DNA of 64,000 nt from Alphaproteobacteria bacterium (lineage in GTDB: Bacteria; Pseudomonadota; Alphaproteobacteria; JACZXZ01), in the NCBI GenBank assembly GCA_035294245.1, contig DATGLG010000067.1, positions 173,726 to 237,725 of the forward strand, in the 5' to 3' direction. A model generated the notes under the pieces. The model worked only from the letters and a program-made list of their open reading frames with translations, was not told where the DNA came from and did no database searches. The position numbers and the translations under genes are program-made. Of the stretch, positions 2,590-9,875 are shown in pieces (within the stretch, counting starts at the first letter, position 1; each line of letters starts with the position of its first letter).

Positions 2590-3768
2590 ATGAACGCACC
2601 AGCTGCTTTGGGACAGCTCCTTCCCCTCGAGGCCTATACTTCGGACGAGTGGTTCCGCGCCGAGCAGGCCAAGCTGTTCGGCAAGGCCTGGGTCTTCGCG
2701 GGCATGGCCGAGGACCTGAGGGCGCCGGGCGATTACCAATGCGTCGATTCCGGCGCGTCCTCGCTGATTCTCCTGCGCGACAGACAGGGCGAGCTGCGCG
2801 CCTTCCACAATGTGTGCCGCCACCGCGGCGCGCGCCTGCTGGAAGGGCGCGGCAATGTGGGGAGCGCCATCACCTGCTTCTATCACAATTGGACCTATGA
2901 GCTGAGCGGCGCCTTGACCGGCGTCACCCTCGGGCGCGACCAGTTTCCCGGCATCGACAAGTCCTGCTATGGCCTGCGCCGGGCCCAGGTGGGGCGCTGG
3001 AAGAACCTCGTCTTCGTGAATCCCGATCCCGCCGCGGAATCCTTCGACGACTGGCTCGCCGGGGTGCCGGAGGCGCGCACCCTCAACGAGCCGGGCCAGC
3101 TCGCGCTCCACGATCCCGAGCGGCTGGTCGAGGTGTCGAGCGTGCGCTACCGCGTGCACGCCAATTGGAAGATCGTCGTCGAGAACTTCATCGACGGCTA
3201 TCACCTCCCGCTGCTGCACAAGGTCTCCCTCGGCGACGGCGATTTCATGAGGCAGAAATGGGCGCCGCGCGGCCGCCACGTCACCTTCTACCGCCCGCTC
3301 AAGCCCGGCATCTCCTATAACGACCAGCCCTTGCCGGTGATCGAGGGCATCCCGCCCACCTATGGTCTCGCCTATTACTGGCTCTTCCCCAGCGTGGCGA
3401 TCACCGAGACCGCGACCTTCTGGACGACCTTCCACGTCATCCCTCTCTCGGCCCGGGACAGCATCGTCCACAGTCGCCTGCGCGCGATGCCCGAGGCGCT
3501 CGCGCGCAAGGGCAGCCGGCAGGTGGCGGTGAACCAGGCGCTGCCGCGCCACGTGATCAGCGCCGAAGGTCCCTATGCGGAGATGCGGCTCGACCTGAGC
3601 GAGACCCATCCGCTCCAGTCGAACAACGTCATGGCCGAGGACATTTATGCCTGCGAGGCGGTGCAGCGGGGCATGGACTCGGGCTCCTGCGAGATCGGCC
3701 CCCTCTCCAAATGGGAATCGACTCTGACCTTCTTCCAGAAGCACGTGCTCGATTATATGGGGGCGTGA
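2590..3768 (+). CDS. Rieske (2Fe-2S) non-heme iron oxygenase alpha subunit, stand-alone (GbcA/CntA-like architecture)
   Basis: 392 aa; Rieske motif CRHRG...CFYHNW (CxH-x17-CxxH); catalytic domain with conserved His/Asp region. No beta subunit or reductase adjacent. Confidence 0.85.
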   Translation: MNAPAALGQLLPLEAYTSDEWFRAEQAKLFGKAWVFAGMAEDLRAPGDYQCVDSGASSLILLRDRQGELRAFHNVCRHRGARLLEGRGNVGSAITCFYHNWTYELSGALTGVTLGRDQFPGIDKSCYGLRRAQVGRWKNLVFVNPDPAAESFDDWLAGVPEARTLNEPGQLALHDPERLVEVSSVRYRVHANWKIVVENFIDGYHLPLLHKVSLGDGDFMRQKWAPRGRHVTFYRPLKPGISYNDQPLPVIEGIPPTYGLAYYWLFPSVAITETATFWTTFHVIPLSARDSIVHSRLRAMPEALARKGSRQVAVNQALPRHVISAEGPYAEMRLDLSETHPLQSNNVMAEDIYACEAVQRGMDSGSCEIGPLSKWESTLTFFQKHVLDYMGA

Positions 3769-3795
3769 GGCGCTTCGATTCGATCGAAGATCATC

Positions 3796-3911
3796 GTCAC
3801 CCCGGCCGACCCCGGATTGATCCGGGGAAGAGCCGGGCCCCAGCTTGAAGCGATGTCGCAGTGCTGGGCCCCGGATCGCGCCGCGCTGCCGCGCAGCTTG
3901 TCCGGGGTGAC
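3796..3911 (+). repeat. 116-bp MITE/REP-like structured repeat element, copy A (12-bp terminal inverted repeats gtcaccccggcc...ggccggggtgac)
   Basis: ~90% identical to the reverse complement of 5807..5922. Internal hairpins; no coding capacity. Confidence 0.65.
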
Positions 3912-4044
3912 GACGAGTGGAGCAAAATCCTACTTGATTCAGCAGCGAATGCAGGCAATCGTCGCGAAGCGATGACGTCGCGGATCACGAGCCAGCTCGG
4001 AGTCAAGACGCACGATCCCGTAATTCTTAGTAAGCTTATTTTAT

Positions 4045-4809
4045 CTAGGCTGCGCCGCCCGGTCGGCGCGCGCGCCGCTTGACAAATGCCGAAGCCGCAA
4101 GCTCCCGCTGCCCGGCCGGCTCCCGGCCTGCCGCGGCAAACAGGCTGAGCGCGAACCAAGAAGAGAATGCCTCCACCTCGCCACGCGACCCATCAAGACG
4201 AAGCCGGCCGTCGCGAATGGCGCTCTGGATTGGAACGTGGCCAAGCCAGATTTGTGTGAGGACACGCAAATTGGCTTCGACGAAAAGGTCGACGTCGAAG
4301 CCGGGATCGCGATAGCACAGATCGACAGCGCCGCGCTCGAAGACCAACCAGTAACGGCGTCGGCTGATCGGCACGCCGGAGAGTCGGAATTCGACGACCA
4401 ACCGCCGATTCCGCCTCGGCGCATGGGCCGCAACGTTGCGGCGAATGTCCCACATCAAAAGATCGGGGTCCAAATTCGCGGTATCGACGAGATCATGACG
4501 GAGCCAGCGCTGCGCCCAGAGCCCCATTTTCTCGACCACCGGGAAAAGCTCCCGGCCGGCCGCCGTCAGGTGATACTCGACGCCGCCACCCTCTCTGCGC
4601 CGACGCTCGACGATACCGGCGAACTGCAGCTGCCTGAGACGTTGCGTCAGCAGCGCCGACGACATTCGCGGCACCCCGCGCTGCAGATCGTTGAAGCGGA
4701 CGCTGCCGCACAACAGCTCCCGGATGACCAGCGGCATCCATCGCTCGGCCAATATCTCGGCCGCAAGGGCAATCGGACAGAACTGGCCGTATCCGCGTCT
4801 CTCAGCCAT
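4045..4809 (-). CDS. HxlR-family (MarR-like winged-helix) transcriptional regulator with ~130-aa C-terminal extension
   Basis: Start MAERRGYGQFCPIALAAEILAERWMPLVIRELL... is the HxlR signature. Last ~20 codons lie inside the duplicated junction segment 4015..4105. Confidence 0.75.
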   Translation of the reverse strand: MAERRGYGQFCPIALAAEILAERWMPLVIRELLCGSVRFNDLQRGVPRMSSALLTQRLRQLQFAGIVERRRREGGGVEYHLTAAGRELFPVVEKMGLWAQRWLRHDLVDTANLDPDLLMWDIRRNVAAHAPRRNRRLVVEFRLSGVPISRRRYWLVFERGAVDLCYRDPGFDVDLFVEANLRVLTQIWLGHVPIQSAIRDGRLRLDGSRGEVEAFSSWFALSLFAAAGREPAGQRELAASAFVKRRARRPGGAA

Positions 4810-4818
4810 GCCATATCC

Positions 4819-4888
4819 TAGCAAGAAACCACGTCGTGGCCACTTCACATTTTAAAGTTGAGGGCTCGGGCAGTCGGGGCGAAGCTCT
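4819..4888 (+). promoter_or_regulatory. ~70-bp promoter/operator module (copy 1) containing palindrome ccacgtcgtgg, upstream of PEP-CTERM gene and divergent from hxlR
   Basis: Recurs at 5952..6018 upstream of the ACAD-family gene (agcaagaaa...cacttcaca(t/a)tt(t/g)aa(a)gttga(g/a)ggctcgggc(a/g)gtcggggcgaagctctc). Confidence 0.4.
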
Positions 4889-4953
4889 CACACCGGGACA
4901 TGCGCGGCTCTCAAAGAGCATTACCCTCGTCGTCTTCTGCGAAGGAGACGTTT

Positions 4954-5742
4954 ATGTCGAATGGTAATTCCTTGGGCTTTCCGAACGGCGTACGCGCCGC
5001 GCTGCTCGTTGTCGCCGCCATACTGGCCAACACGAGCGCAGCAACTGCGGGCGTGTGGCAGTCGGGCGACGAGATCACTTACACCCAAGTCTCGTGGCCC
5101 GACAATGCGACGGCTGCCGCGCTGCTCACCGACCATTACAGCAGCGTGTATCTGTCCACCTCCGACGTTTTTGAGGTGGGCATCCCCGGCCCGAGCGGCT
5201 TTTCATTAAGCTTTGGCGATGCGTCGCATGTGCTGGCCTTTTTGCCCGAGGCCGGTATACCTGGGCCGCTCACCCAAAGTCAGACTAATCCCGGCTCCAG
5301 CGAATCCGGTCTGTTCGCTGGCGATGTGATGGCGTTGAAATTGGACGTTGACTTTTCGGATGCGGGGCTTCTGCTGGGCAGCTCCGGGATTCCGTTCGGG
5401 GACCTCGTCCTCAGCAACTTCCTGGTCGAAACATCCGACGCGGACCTCAACGGCTTAACCGTGCGCGAGTTTCTGGCCGACGACAACATGGCACTCGGTG
5501 GCGGTCCCAGCCTGAAACCCATCGCTATCATGGACTCGATTACCGAAGACGTGAATATTGCTTTTGATGGCGGTATCGTGACCCCGTTCGCGCAGGATCA
5601 TCTCGTGGCCCCCAGCATGCCCGTCTCTGCCGTGCCGGAGCCGTCCAGTTGGGTTCTGCTCGGCGCCGGGCTGGCGGCCCTCGCCGCGACCCGGCGCTGG
5701 CGAAAAACTAAAATCGGCGGCGGTCTCAAGCGCGTCTCGTGA
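4954..5742 (+). CDS. PEP-CTERM sorting-domain secreted protein
   Basis: RBS aaggag then ATG; signal peptide MSNGNSLGFPNGVRAALLVVAAILANTSAATA; C-terminus VPEPSSWVLLGAGLAALAATRRWRK is a PEP-CTERM motif. Confidence 0.75.
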   Translation: MSNGNSLGFPNGVRAALLVVAAILANTSAATAGVWQSGDEITYTQVSWPDNATAAALLTDHYSSVYLSTSDVFEVGIPGPSGFSLSFGDASHVLAFLPEAGIPGPLTQSQTNPGSSESGLFAGDVMALKLDVDFSDAGLLLGSSGIPFGDLVLSNFLVETSDADLNGLTVREFLADDNMALGGGPSLKPIAIMDSITEDVNIAFDGGIVTPFAQDHLVAPSMPVSAVPEPSSWVLLGAGLAALAATRRWRKTKIGGGLKRVS

Positions 5743-5806
5743 GTCGTAGAGAAGGCGATTGCGCTCCGGATTGGCTGGAGAAGGGCAGTTGCATCCGTTT
5801 TTATTC

Positions 5807-5922
5807 GTCACCCCGGACAAGCCGTGCGAAAGCACGGCGCGATCCGGGGCCCAGTACTGCGACATCGCTTCAAGCTGGGCCCCGGCTTCCCCCGGATCAC
5901 GTTCGGGGTCGGCCGGGGTGAC
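5807..5922 (+). repeat. 116-bp MITE/REP-like structured repeat element, copy B (inverted relative to copy A)
   Basis: gtcaccccggac...gtcggccggggtgac. Contains gccgtgc-gaaa-gcacggc hairpin and long imperfect hairpin gatccggggcccag...ctgggccccgg. Confidence 0.65.
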
Positions 5923-5951
5923 ATGGGGGAATCGAAATGAGAGACGTTAAT

Positions 5952-6018
5952 CACGAGCAAGAAAAAGCGTCTCCTCCACTTCACATATTGAAGTTGAAGG
6001 CTCGGGCGGTCGGGGCGA
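5952..6018 (+). promoter_or_regulatory. ~70-bp promoter/operator module (copy 2) upstream of ACAD-family gene
   Basis: Paralogous to 4819..4888; ORF-track translations of both contain ARAVGAKLS. Confidence 0.4.
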
Positions 6019-6050
6019 AGCTCTCGCGGACGCCCAAATCGAGGTCCGCC

Positions 6051-7184
6051 ATGTCCCGATCTCTCGACCTGGAAGCGCTTGCGGAGAGCATTGGACCGCG
6101 CTTTGCCGAGGGCGCGGCCGAGCGCGATCAAGGCGACGTCTTCGTATCGGGACACTACGATATTCTGAAAGAGCACAAGGTCTTTTCGGCGCTGGTTCCT
6201 GTCGAGCTCGGGGGTGCCGGTGCGCGCCATAGCGCCATGTGCGCCTTTCTGCGGCGGCTCGCCCATTATTGCCCATCGACGGCGCTGGCGCTGTCCATGC
6301 ACCAGCACCTCGTCGCGGCCGCGGTCTACCACCACCTCAACGGCAGGCCCGGAAAGGCGCTGCTGGAGCGGGTTGCAGCCAACGAGACGGTTCTCATCTC
6401 GACCGGCGCCAATGATTGGATGGAATCGAGCGGCACCATGGAGCGCGCCGCCGGCGGCTACCGCGTCAGCGCCAGAAAGCCGTTCGGCAGCGGTTCGCCT
6501 AAGGGCGGGGTCCTGGTGACCTCCGCGACGTTTAACGATCCCAAGGACGGCTGGCAGGTCCTGCATTTCGCCGTTCCTTTCGCCGCGCCCGGGATTTCGC
6601 TGGCCGATGATTGGCGCGCGCTCGGCATGCGCTCAACCGGCTCCCACACGATCGTTCTGGATAACGTCTTCGTGCCGGATGATGCGATCGCGCTGCGGCG
6701 GCCGCGCGGCCGGTTCCATCCCGCCTGGAATGTGATTCTGACTGTGGCAATGCCGCTGATTATGTCGGTTTACGCCGGGGTCGCAGAGGCTGCTGCGGCG
6801 ATTGGAGGCGAGCAGGCAAAAAAGCGCTCGAATGATCCAGCCGTGCCGTATCTGCTCGGCGAGCTGGCCAACGAGCTGACGACGGTCCAGCTTGCCATTG
6901 CCGACATGGTTCGCCTCGCCAACGACTTCGATTTCGCCATGAAGCTGGAGGTTGCCAACGCCATGCTGGTGCGCAAGACGATCGTCGCCGAGCATGTGCT
7001 GTCGACGGTGGAAAAGGCATTGGAGGCGGCCGGCGGCGCCGGCTTTTATCGTCCTGCCGGGCTCGAGCGGCTGTTGCGCGACGCCCATGGCGCGCAATTC
7101 CATCCCCTCTCAGCGAAACGCCAGCACCGGTTCACCGGCCGCATTGCGCTCGGCCTCGATCCTATCGCGGATGCGCCGGCCTGA
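6051..7184 (+). CDS. Acyl-CoA dehydrogenase family flavoprotein (possibly ACAD-type flavin monooxygenase)
   Basis: 378 aa from MSRSLDLEALAESIGPRF...; ACAD N/middle/C domain architecture by eye. Exact substrate unknown. Confidence 0.7.
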   Translation: MSRSLDLEALAESIGPRFAEGAAERDQGDVFVSGHYDILKEHKVFSALVPVELGGAGARHSAMCAFLRRLAHYCPSTALALSMHQHLVAAAVYHHLNGRPGKALLERVAANETVLISTGANDWMESSGTMERAAGGYRVSARKPFGSGSPKGGVLVTSATFNDPKDGWQVLHFAVPFAAPGISLADDWRALGMRSTGSHTIVLDNVFVPDDAIALRRPRGRFHPAWNVILTVAMPLIMSVYAGVAEAAAAIGGEQAKKRSNDPAVPYLLGELANELTTVQLAIADMVRLANDFDFAMKLEVANAMLVRKTIVAEHVLSTVEKALEAAGGAGFYRPAGLERLLRDAHGAQFHPLSAKRQHRFTGRIALGLDPIADAPA

Positions 7185-7196
7185 AGTCTGGGAGCA

Positions 7197-7300
7197 GTCG
7201 TGGGGTGGACGCCGGCTCCTGCGAGATCGGCTCCCTCTCCAAATGGGAATCGACGCTGCCTTTCTTCCAGAAGCACGTGCTCGACGATATGGGGGTGTGA
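7197..7300 (+). pseudogene. Remnant 3' end (34 codons plus stop) of a Rieske oxygenase gene; duplicate of 3670..3773
   Basis: Reads ...RGVDAGSCEIGSLSKWESTLPFFQKHVLDDMGV* versus RGMDSGSCEIGPLSKWESTLTFFQKHVLDYMGA* in the intact gene. No upstream coding body. Confidence 0.55.
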
Positions 7301-7637
7301 GGCTCTCCCGAGAGCGAGGTCATTGCGAGCGCCCGCGGCCGAGCCAGCAAGGCGGCGGGAGCGCGGCAATCCAGTCTCCTGGATCGCCACGATCGCGGAG
7401 CCTGTCCTCGGGCCGGCTTTCAGCCGGACCCGTGGGCGATCTCGCGATGATGGTTGCGACGCGACAAGGACGTCACCGCGAGCCGGAGGGGAAGCTTTGC
7501 GATGACGACGGGCCCGTGATTCTGCGCCGCTCCCGTAACCCTTAGTAAACTTATCTGGTCTAGGCTGCGCCGCCTGATCGGCGAGCGCGACGCTTGACAA
7601 ATGTCGATGCCGCAGGCGCCGCTCAGGATTCGAGCCT

Positions 7638-9875
7638 GTGAGAGCCTGGACCATCATGAGACGGCGCGGCGAGGTTTCGCGGAATAAGGAAAAGGAAGAG
7701 GCGGCGGATGCGGCCGCCCCGGCGGTCGCCACGGAGCGCAAGGGCTGGCGCCGGCGGTTGAAATTCTGGCGCCGCGGCACGGCGGCCCCGCGCCGCCCGC
7801 GCAAGGCGCGCAAGCCGCGGCGGCGCTCCTTCCTGAGGAACATCCGCATCGGCCTGCGCATCTGGGCGCTCGCCGGCCTCGGCGCCGCCGGCATCGCCGC
7901 CCTCTCGGCCTCCTATCTCGTCACCGACAATCGCATCAGCGCCGCCATGGCCGCGACCGCGGCGGACGAGCATTTCGCCCGCCTGGTGAACAAGGTCGCC
8001 GGCGTCATCGCGCGGATGCACACCGACGAGACCACCTATCTCCTCGCGCGGGACACGCAGTTCTCCTCGCAATTCCAGTCGGACGCCGTCGACGCCGATA
8101 CCGCCCTCTCCCTCGTCGAGCACGATCCGGTCGAGCCCGCCGTCGATGCCAAGGTGAAGGCGCTCCGCAGCGCCCTCGGCAAATATGTCGGCCAGTTCAA
8201 CATGGTCGACATGACCTTGAGCGCCATGGCCGGGGAGGGGCAGAACCTGCAAGTGACCCTCGCCGCCGCCGCCAAGGCGATCGAGGACGGCATCGCGGCG
8301 GCCCATGCGGATGCGCTCCGCGCCATGTTCCTCGAGCTCCGGGAGAGCGAGGCGGATTTCCGCCTCACCACCGATGCCAAATACGTGGCGGCCTTCGATA
8401 AGCTCGTCGCCGGCTTCGCCGCGGCGCTGCAAAAGGCGGAGATCGACGCTACGGCGAAGGCCAAGCTCGCCGAGGCCCTCGACCATTACAAGGCCGCCTT
8501 GCACGACTACGCCGACAAGGCGACGGCGCTCGCAGCGCAAACGACCAAGCTGCGCGCCGCCTATGGCGAGCTCGAGGCGCTGCCCGGCAGCCTCTACGAG
8601 GCGACGAGCCAGATGCGCGACAAGGTTGAGCTCACCGCCGACGAGGCGCGGCGCTCGGGCCGCGCCACCATGACGGCGCTCTGCATCGGCATCTTCTCCC
8701 TCTTCATGATCGTGACGTTTGTGCTCTCACGCAGCATCGGCCGGCCGCTGCGGCGCATCATCGCGGTGGTGCGGCGGGTCGCCGATGGCGATGCCGATGT
8801 CGAGGTGACGATCGATCTCGTCGGCCGCGACGAGGTGGGTGCGATGGCCGAGGCCGTCGAGGTTTTCAAGGCCAATGCCCGCGAGCGTGAGCGCCTGCAG
8901 GCGGAGCAGGCCGAGGCGGCGCAGGCGGCGGCGGCCGAGCGCGAGAGGCGCCGCATCGAGGATGCCGAGCGCGCCCGTGCGGAGGCCGAGCGCGCCGAGG
9001 CCCTGCGCCGCGAGGCCGATGCCGAGCGCCGGCGCATGCTCCAGGAGCTCGCCCAGGCGCTCGAGCAGAACATGCAGGCCCTGACCACGGCGGTGAGCGG
9101 GGCCGCAAGCGAGCTGCGCATGACGGCCGAGGGCATGGCTGCGACGGCCTCGACCGCGGGGCAGCAATCGGCGGCGGTGGCCGCCGCCTCGGAGCAGGCC
9201 TCGGGCAATGTCCAGGCGGTCGCCTCGGCGACGGAGGAGCTCGCCGCCTCGATCGCCGAGATCGGGCGCCAGGTCAGCCAGTCAACCGAGGTCGCCCGCA
9301 AGGCGGTGGCGCGCGCGCAGGATACGAGCAAGACCATCGAGAGCCTGGCCGAGGCGGCGCAGCGGATCGGGCAGGTCATCGATCTCATCAACGACATCGC
9401 CAGCCAGACCAATCTCCTGGCGCTCAACGCCACGATCGAGGCGGCGCGCGCGGGGGAGGCCGGCAAGGGCTTCGCCGTGGTCGCCGCCGAGGTCAAGGCC
9501 CTCGCCAGCCAGACCGCCAAGGCGACCGAGGAGATCGGCAGCCAGATCGGCGAGATGCAGCAGGCGACCCGCACGGCGGTCGCGGCGATCGAGGGCATCC
9601 GCAGCACCATCGCCGAGGTGAGCGAGACCGCGACGGCGATCGAGGCCGCGGTGGGCCAGCAGGGGGCCGCGACCGGGGAGATCGCCCAGAATATCCAGCG
9701 CGCGGCGGCCGGCACGCAGGAGGTCTCGACCAACATCGCCGGCATTACCGACGCCATCGACCGCACCGGCGGCTCGGCGAGCCGCGTGCTCACCGCGGCG
9801 AACGATCTCGCCGGCCAGGCGGACCGCCTCGATACGGAAGTCAAGCGCTTCGTCGGGCAAATCCGCGCGATGTAG
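7638..9875 (+). CDS. Methyl-accepting chemotaxis protein (two TM segments, periplasmic sensor, HAMP, Ala/Glu/Arg-rich linker, MCP signalling domain)
   Basis: Signalling-domain hallmark [37 protein letters not shown]. Exact start uncertain (alternative ATG at 7656). Upstream ttgaca at 7596. Confidence 0.85.

Follow-up and report, generated by a model that had tools for sequence, protein, structure and literature searches.

A duplicated divergent control region probably links a PEP-CTERM gene to an HxlR-type regulator and a flavoprotein gene in an alphaproteobacterium

Introduction

This study concerns a locus in a 64,000-nucleotide stretch of DNA from Alphaproteobacteria bacterium (GenBank assembly GCA_035294245.1, contig DATGLG010000067.1, positions 173,726 to 237,725 of the forward strand), which is analysed at its full length and is hereafter called the window. 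The locus contains genes for an HxlR/DUF24-type winged-helix regulator (hxlR), a PEP-CTERM sorting-signal protein, and an ACAD-fold flavoprotein. A first-pass annotation, made from the sequence, had described a promoter/operator module of approximately 70 bp upstream of both the PEP-CTERM gene and the flavoprotein gene, and had predicted that the adjacent HxlR-type regulator controls both. Here, we show that the module is not a free-standing element but the core of an ancestral control region from which an HxlR/DUF24-type regulator gene and an ACAD-fold flavin-enzyme gene diverge. The two copies probably place the three genes under one regulator. The annotation is thus partly supported: it was right on the duplicated control region and on likely co-regulation, named the wrong site, and missed the origin of the arrangement.

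Operator duplication is a general route by which a gene joins a regulon. Gene-order change has been described by the tandem duplication-random loss model, which is known mainly from mitochondrial genomes. Rv3095 of Mycobacterium tuberculosis is an HxlR-family regulator. Its overexpression lowered the expression of Rv3094c, a neighbouring gene for an ACAD-fold monooxygenase (PMC9904262). The DUF24 regulator HypR footprints on a 7-2-7 inverted repeat, which also occurs at the promoter of hypR itself, and a role for the conserved N-terminal cysteine has been described in HypR, YodB, and CatR (PMC3351151).

Materials and methods

The orthologous set was assembled with the flavoprotein as the query against one genome per species, which yielded 80 loci. 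The intergenic regions of the 62 loci with a directly divergent hxlR homologue were anchored on the best match to CAACTTCA-N5-TGAAGTTG, and column information was calculated from 60 orthologues. Unless otherwise stated, coordinates are those of the window, and conservation refers to this set.

Results

The hxlR gene (4045..4809, minus strand) encodes 254 amino acids. The protein matches PF01638 (E 1.3e-22, residues 19-105) and has a weak SCP2-like C-terminal part in Pfam. Its start is the ATG at 4809 and not the GTG at 4848. A total of 4790 homologues was found, with a typical length of about 240 amino acids; Cys11, in the motif GQFCP, is invariant in an alignment of the regulator with homologues, so that the regulator carries the conserved N-terminal cysteine. 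The closest solved relatives in the PDB are HypR/YybR, YodB, and HxlR. The public annotation starts the regulator at Met25 (230 amino acids), which would drop the conserved N-terminus, including the invariant Cys11. The PEP-CTERM gene (4954..5742, plus strand) encodes 262 amino acids, matches PF07589 and TIGR02595, and has 114 homologues; no known domain was assigned to the mature part of the protein, and its AlphaFold model, with a mean predicted local distance difference test score of 48, was too poor for use. The flavoprotein gene (6051..7184, plus strand) encodes 377 amino acids, and its orthologues align from the ATG at 6051. The protein is most similar to two-component flavin monooxygenases and N-oxygenases (KijD3, DnmZ, ORF36, XiaF, and DszC) and is closest to the group-D flavin monooxygenases/nitrososynthases, not to true acyl-CoA dehydrogenases. 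Domain searches therefore agree with the three earlier gene calls, with the ACAD-family protein nearer to flavin monooxygenases and N-oxygenases.

A repeat search returned one direct-repeat family of 70 nt, with copies at 4820-4889 and 5956-6025 (59/70 identical, 84%; 1136 nt from start to start). The duplicated module is thus real, and the coordinates first given for it (4819..4888 and 5952..6018) are shifted by 1-7 nt. Each of two conserved repeat cores occurs exactly twice in the window, compared with 0.00 occurrences in 100 shuffles. In the pairwise alignment, similarity begins at AGCAAGAAA and stops at GAAGCTCTC; the flanks outside the 70 nt align locally at shuffle level on both sides (p about 0.12). 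The longest exact run common to both copies is 17 nt, and the right 50 nt diverge by about 10%, compared with 12-16% in the neighbouring, presumably neutral repeats. Copy 1 (plus orientation) adjoins hxlR, in the divergent hxlR/PEP-CTERM region, and ends 64 nt 5' of the PEP-CTERM ATG. Copy 2 (plus orientation) ends 25 nt 5' of the flavoprotein ATG. The positions first assigned to the copies relative to the genes agree with these coordinates: the copies are alike beyond chance, and each lies 5' of a plus-strand gene and points toward it. Sequence identical to the locus is present in other assemblies, and an independent assembly scaffolds the same gene order.

In 62 of the 80 flavoprotein loci, an hxlR homologue lies directly divergent from the flavoprotein gene. 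The taxa with this pair include Xanthobacteraceae, Nitrobacter, Stellaceae, and Acetobacteraceae. The stretch between the two genes usually measures 97-135 nt, mostly 104-109 nt, or about 105 nt, and none of these flavoprotein loci has a homologue of the PEP-CTERM gene within 6 kb. The closest complete relative, L170 (87% amino acid identity for HxlR and 91% for the flavoprotein), has a single intergenic region of 106 nt. Window 4094-4889, which includes copy 1, corresponds to L170rc 2832-3627 (85.8% identity), and window 5958-7172, which includes copy 2, corresponds to L170rc 3560-4775 (89.1%). The 68 nt at L170rc 3560-3627, nucleotides 13-80 of its intergenic region, are matched by both copies; hence, the module represents positions ~13-80 of an ancestral intergenic region of ~105 nt. 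The repeat is orthologous to the single control region between hxlR and the flavoprotein gene, and its earlier description as a promoter/operator region is supported. The 1,066-bp segment between the copies (4890-5955) carries the PEP-CTERM gene, a terminator-like hairpin, and an element resembling a miniature inverted-repeat transposable element (MITE).

The intergenic regions share an 8-5-8 palindrome, CAACTTCA-N5-TGAAGTTG, with a match of at least 12/16 in 60 of the 62. The median distance is 30 nt to the hxlR ATG on one side and 56 nt to the flavoprotein ATG on the other, and the palindrome columns carry nearly all the information of the intergenic region. Conservation reaches a Halopseudomonas metagenome-assembled genome (MAG) and an Anaerolineae MAG. 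The window contains two occurrences, compared with 0.02 expected, one in each copy of the module. Candidate operator 1 (4840..4860; CCACTTCA-CATTT-TAAAGTTG) matches the consensus at 14/16 and keeps the ancestral distance of 30 nt to the hxlR ATG. Candidate operator 2 (5976..5996; CCACTTCA-CATAT-TGAAGTTG) matches at 15/16 and lies 54 nt 5' of the flavoprotein ATG, close to the ancestral median. An inverted-repeat site is thus conserved with the gene pair in the promoter region concerned. The arms change one-sidedly across orthologues (94 non-complementary cells versus 3 double changes), which fits a dimeric protein site and not an RNA helix. We infer that the palindrome is a candidate binding site of the regulator dimer, and that the flavin-enzyme gene is the target of the HxlR/DUF24-type regulator. 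In L053 and L054 (Undibacter/Pseudolabrys MAGs), both half-sites carry the same symmetric change, CAACTGCA...TGCAGTTG, as would be expected if the operator and the specificity of the regulator had shifted together.

The first-pass annotation had pointed to a different sequence, the 5-1-5 palindrome ccacgtcgtgg. It is indeed present in copy 1 (4829..4839), 1 nt from the 8-5-8 palindrome, and absent from copy 2. However, ccacgtcgtgg falls in the least conserved columns of the anchored alignment (columns 10-30), where information is near zero over the 60 orthologues. At the equivalent place, L170 has AACAAGAAAAAGCGTCATTT and copy 2 has AGCAAGAAAAAGCGTCTCCT, and the form shared by these two is AAAGCGTC(ATTT/TCCT). 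Since L170 resembles copy 2, the left 20 nt of copy 2 are ancestral and the palindrome of copy 1 is derived. On this comparison, a few substitutions gave rise to ccacgtcgtgg recently and in this lineage only, and its proposed role as the HxlR binding site finds no support.

Outside the palindrome, conservation is confined to a cA..cT motif, which follows the TTGnnn of the right palindrome arm at a distance of exactly 17 nt, so that the conserved promoter pattern reads TTG-N3-N17-nAnnnT. In copy 1, this pattern predicts a promoter facing the PEP-CTERM gene (4858..4886, plus strand), with a -35 element TTGAGG (4858-4863), a 17-nt spacer, a -10 element GAAGCT (4881-4886), and a start expected near 4893. 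In copy 2, it predicts the flavoprotein promoter (5994..6022, plus strand), with TTGAAG (5994-5999), a 17-nt spacer, and GAAGCT (6017-6022), followed by a GAGG ribosome-binding site at 6041-6044. The promoter that faces the PEP-CTERM gene would thus duplicate that of the flavoprotein gene. Between the two copies of the module, the palindrome arms and the -35 element show one change each, and the -10 element shows none.

On the minus strand, a putative hxlR -10 element, TAGGAT, lies at 4815..4820, 5 nt before the ATG. In 36 of the 62 regions, AnnnTA, the reverse complement of TAnnnT, occupies offset 6-11 or 7-12 relative to the hxlR ATG. A Shine-Dalgarno (SD)-like motif precedes hxlR in 9/62, and GGAG/GAGG lies 5-16 nt before the flavoprotein ATG in 53/62. 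The near-ATG TAnnnT and the rarity of SD motifs suggest that hxlR is probably translated from a leaderless mRNA whose -35 element would be the left palindrome arm. The duplication extends from the last base of the putative hxlR -10 element (4820), which its left edge cuts, to 3 nt past the rightward -10 element (4889). The duplicated piece would thus include both -35 elements and the operator together with the -10 element of the rightward promoter, and copy 2 would be left without the hxlR -10 element.

The same arrangement was found in two uninterrupted contigs, L095 (ENA, 2.8 kb) and L165 (JGI, 1.5 kb), in the order hxlR, copy 1, PEP-CTERM homologue, copy 2, and flavoprotein gene. These contigs come from other samples and from another clade (Stellaceae-like), and their proteins are ~74% identical to those of the window. 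The palindrome and the -10 element are present in both copies of both contigs, and the MITE is absent. The putative operator, -35, and -10 elements are thus all retained in both copies in the window, L095, and L165. By gapped global alignment, the two copies within a genome share 63/69 positions in L165 and 56/68 in L095. The HxlR proteins of L095 and L165 are 98-99% identical (residues 1-224) to those of the Stellaceae MAGs L037 and L049, each with a single intergenic region; the duplication is therefore polymorphic among close relatives.

Close homologues of the PEP-CTERM gene occur in four contexts. They lie between two modules in the window, L095, and L165; directly after the flavoprotein gene, at a distance of 46 nt, in L087-L090 and L097, whose flavoprotein is 92% identical to that of the window; after a methyltransferase gene in L091-L094; and elsewhere in L096. 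The link of a PEP-CTERM gene to the control region is thus kept in two layouts, between modules or in the same operon behind the flavoprotein gene. In L170, hxlR, the single intergenic region, and the flavoprotein gene are followed by a gene for a PEP-CTERM protein unrelated to that of the window apart from the anchor. A metagenome scan by PEP-CTERM alignment gave 68 loci, nearly all 40-50% identical, none of them near hxlR or the flavoprotein gene. Nor was either gene ever found near the more distant homologues (40-55%), including the P0129 and P0131 contexts. The linkage to this locus is therefore confined to the clade of at least 70% identity.

The DNA starting 35 nt past the flavoprotein stop codon in L037 and L049 is ~76% identical to the DNA after copy 1 in L165 and L095. 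The match spans the first ~20 codons of the downstream gene, which encodes a CxxCH protein in L037, and then diverges. This match suggests that the segment between the modules probably originated in the slot that follows the flavoprotein gene. When the flanks of the window insert (4890-5060 and 5743-5955) were compared with all fetched loci, self-matches alone were obtained. A similarity between the end of the L037 flavoprotein gene and the right half of the module was judged to be chance, except for an 8-nt microhomology, TCAGACTG.

Within each lineage, the slot after the flavoprotein gene looks like a site of cassette exchange, in which the 5' spacer and the first ~15-20 codons (the leader and the start of the signal peptide) are homologous. 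Its occupants include a PEP-CTERM homologue (L088:1092-1904), an unrelated PEP-CTERM gene (L170:3063-3743, minus strand), and a CxxCH cytochrome-like gene (L037:7257-7617).

Within the insert, the PEP-CTERM gene is followed by a terminator-like hairpin (5755-5792) and a U-run, ATCCGTTTTTATT (5755..5805 in all, plus strand). The hairpin was seen in the minimum free energy structure of 5743-5960, was missed by the simple terminator scan, and probably ends the PEP-CTERM transcript. It adjoins a 118-nt MITE-like element, which also resembles a repetitive extragenic palindromic (REP) element (5805..5922; terminal inverted repeats GTCACCCCGG...CCGGGGTGAC; fold z = -4.8). A second, inverted copy at 3796-3913 is 85-90% identical, and the pair brackets hxlR, copy 1, and the PEP-CTERM gene. 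Short-read contigs end at the MITE edge (5816 or 5933), and in one public scaffold the MITE is interrupted by an N-gap. Another hairpin, CGTCTTC-TGCG-AAGGAGACG (4931-4950), covers the ribosome-binding site of the PEP-CTERM gene and is one of the two hits of the terminator scan; the fold of the PEP-CTERM 5' untranslated region is no better than that of shuffles (z = -0.6).

Discussion

The arrangement is probably best explained by duplication of the ancestral control region around the PEP-CTERM segment, with an operator and a promoter in each copy and one regulator controlling all three genes. One regulator dimer would bind each palindrome, centred at about -41 to -43 of the divergent promoters. 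Copy 1 would retain the autoregulation of hxlR and would now also drive the PEP-CTERM gene, whose transcript would end at the hairpin and the MITE. Copy 2 would drive the flavoprotein gene as in the relatives. A repressor that occludes the -35 element is the more likely mode of action, with a class-II-type activator as the alternative, and the invariant N-terminal cysteine suggests a thiol-based electrophile or oxidant signal. Because both copies keep the conserved palindrome with the predicted -35 and -10 elements, co-regulation is the most economical reading. The co-regulation predicted by the first-pass annotation is consistent with these elements and with a layout kept in three genomes; the site through which it was to act is the part that failed.

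Several observations weigh against this interpretation. In the stretch from copy 1 to the PEP-CTERM gene of the window, no trace of a lost flavoprotein copy was detected. A strict sigma-70 scan of 3600-7700 called no promoter; the hexamers TTGAGG/GAAGCT are weak. The divergence between the copies is similar to that of the neighbouring repeats, and the case for selection on the rightward promoter of copy 1 rests on two other genomes. A separate promoter for the PEP-CTERM gene could lie in the 64 nt that separate its ATG from copy 1. The PEP-CTERM tree also conflicts with the flavoprotein tree: the L095 protein is 82% identical to the protein of the layout behind the flavoprotein gene and 71% identical to that of the window. 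This disagreement indicates that gene exchange occurred.

Some of these points would equally suit a neutral scar, in which the rightward promoter of copy 1 is inactive or irrelevant and the PEP-CTERM gene either has a promoter of its own (4890-4953) or lies outside the control of the regulator. Copies no less diverged than the nearby repeats, hexamers that fail the strict scan, and close PEP-CTERM homologues in unrelated contexts, after a methyltransferase gene or elsewhere, could all be read in this way. However, copy 1 has intact operator, -35, and -10 elements in three genomes from two clades, and it must in any case remain functional for hxlR. Relatives moreover place a PEP-CTERM or other secreted-protein gene right behind the flavoprotein gene, under the same promoter, which argues that the linkage is selected. 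We therefore consider a neutral scar improbable. Considerably less probable still is a regulator that binds ccacgtcgtgg in copy 1, with copy 2 regulated differently or sharing promoter sequence alone. That 5-1-5 palindrome does exist in the divergent region, but it occupies the least conserved columns, both the closest relative and copy 2 retain the ancestral sequence in its place, and a far better conserved palindrome lies 1 nt downstream in both copies.

Three further explanations are barely credible. The repeat might be a mobile or dispersed element (REP or MITE) or a transposon target-site duplication, and a real MITE-like element does lie inside the insert (5805-5922), with another nearby (3796-3913). 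Yet the module has two copies only in 64 kb, and in 62 genomes the same locus has one intergenic region orthologous to it. Duplications made by transposases are far shorter than 70 bp; neither a transposase gene nor terminal inverted repeats were found at the insert ends (4890/5955), and L095 and L165 carry the duplication without the MITE. Equally implausible is an RNA leader, a riboswitch, or an N-terminal peptide common to both proteins. Each copy can be read without a stop codon in the frame of the plus-strand gene that follows it (4858-4953 and 5937-6050; ..PLHILKL(R/K)ARAVGAKLS..), and 4/5 of the differences in the right part are synonymous. Allowing for frames and strands, however, four of five changes at third positions arise by chance about 1 in 5 times, and the in-frame reading was judged a coincidence. 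A coding module was rejected since orthologues start at the ATG at 6051, preceded by an SD motif in 53/62, and L001 has an in-frame stop codon 27 nt upstream. The evidence also speaks against a cis-regulatory RNA: the 3000-9000 region has 0 Rfam matches at E<=1, the arms vary without compensation, and the predicted transcription start lies downstream of the module. As for an artefact of metagenome assembly, given next to no weight here, short-read contigs do stop at the MITE edge and one scaffold has its gap inside the MITE. Nevertheless, with no exact run longer than 17 nt between the copies, a k-mer graph cannot collapse or loop at this place; an independent assembly scaffolds the same order, and L095 and L165 show the same architecture in uninterrupted contigs.

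The co-regulated arrangement most likely arose by a gene-order swap from a layout in which hxlR diverged from a flavoprotein gene followed by a secreted-protein gene, with the promoter duplicated meanwhile. The close relatives L170, L087-L090, and L097 show the order flavoprotein gene then PEP-CTERM gene, with a single control region in L170, and in the ancestor the PEP-CTERM gene was probably co-transcribed with the flavoprotein gene. The simplest route would be a tandem duplication of the module-flavoprotein-secreted gene unit, followed by loss of the first flavoprotein gene and of the second copy of the secreted-protein gene. Integration of a circular intermediate by recombination is an alternative route. 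The left boundary of the duplication stops 10 nt before the hxlR ATG in the window and apparently lies tens of nucleotides into the hxlR coding start in L095 and L165. Because these left boundaries differ, the closest relatives are single-copy, and the PEP-CTERM tree conflicts, the same promoter-duplicating rearrangement may have occurred independently in two lineages, at an exchange slot for secreted-protein genes under a redox-type regulator. The right boundary is the same within ~2 nt in the window and in L095/L165, which argues for one event, after which a copy would have been lost repeatedly through recombination between the 70-nt repeats, and we put forward independent origins only tentatively, as the less likely case. 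If they are true, selection would repeatedly tie an exported surface protein to the regulon, and promoter duplication would be a recurrent solution.

The locus is a DUF24/HxlR-type divergent operator-promoter that has been duplicated, an instance of ordinary regulatory evolution and not a new kind of system. It shares PF01638, the N-terminal cysteine, and a conserved inverted repeat, both in the promoter of a flavin/oxidoreductase target and in the regulator's own promoter, with the MarR/DUF24 redox or electrophile regulators and their neighbouring oxidoreductase targets in Bacillus subtilis (HypR-hypO, YodB-azoR1/yodC, and CatR-catDE) and Corynebacterium glutamicum (QorR-qorA). Unlike HypR, YodB, CatR, and QorR, the regulator of the window is twice as long, has an SCP2-like C-terminal part (a weak Pfam match), and belongs to an uncharacterised alphaproteobacterial family. 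The operator also differs from those of HypR-type systems in its 8-5-8 form with ACTTCA/TGAAGT, and two copies of the operator-promoter core flank an intervening gene. In the literature, nothing specific was found on this operator or on HxlR-SCP2 fusions, and the support is at family level.

The locus also resembles Rv3095/Rv3094c-Rv3093c, by analogy alone, in that a regulator gene adjoins the gene of an ACAD-fold flavin-dependent monooxygenase; the promoter duplication and the PEP-CTERM gene set the window apart. By that analogy, the Rv3095 case would favour a repressor. As in tandem duplication-random loss, two adjacent genes are swapped relative to close relatives, a duplicated control region stands before each, and in one lineage the spacer that precedes the moved gene shows homology to the one behind the flavoprotein gene in relatives. 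Unlike in that model, no degraded remnant is detectable in the window, and horizontal exchange of the PEP-CTERM gene is evident. A complete operator and promoter have been copied before a second gene, as when operator duplication brings a gene into a regulon; here, however, the duplication would preserve co-regulation after a rearrangement rather than create it.

For a gene pair that is widespread in soil Alphaproteobacteria and uncharacterised, these comparisons offer a promoter layout and a concrete candidate operator, CAACTTCA-N5-TGAAGTTG. They suggest that co-regulation can survive a change of gene order when a copy of the operator-promoter core is carried along. They would also place an exported protein of the PEP-CTERM type in a probable thiol-based stress regulon, a connection that no annotation suggests.

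The whole 3.1-kb hxlR-PEP-flavoprotein unit is in turn bracketed by a larger, interrupted direct repeat (both copies in plus orientation). The left copy (3667..4105) consists of 3667-3774, at the 3' end of a Rieske gene, and 4013-4105, which overlaps the 3' end of hxlR. The right copy (7199..7620) consists of 7199-7306 (88% identical), a nonfunctional piece of the Rieske 3' end, and 7528-7620 (84%), immediately 5' of an MCP gene. The C-terminal 14 codons of hxlR (window 4045-4092), read out of the 4013-4105 repeat, are a local extension that appears as 14 extra amino acids in the alignment, with no counterpart in the ~240-amino-acid homologues. GC content at third codon positions is 0.73-0.77 in the unit, compared with 0.86-0.92 in the flanking genes. 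From these sequence features, the unit looks like one block that was acquired or relocated, with a target of ~440 bp duplicated. The variable middle of the right copy (7307-7527) is a GC-rich, repeat-like stretch, gtcattgcgagcg...gcaatccagtctcc..., of which a 63-nt piece matches L014 at 79%.

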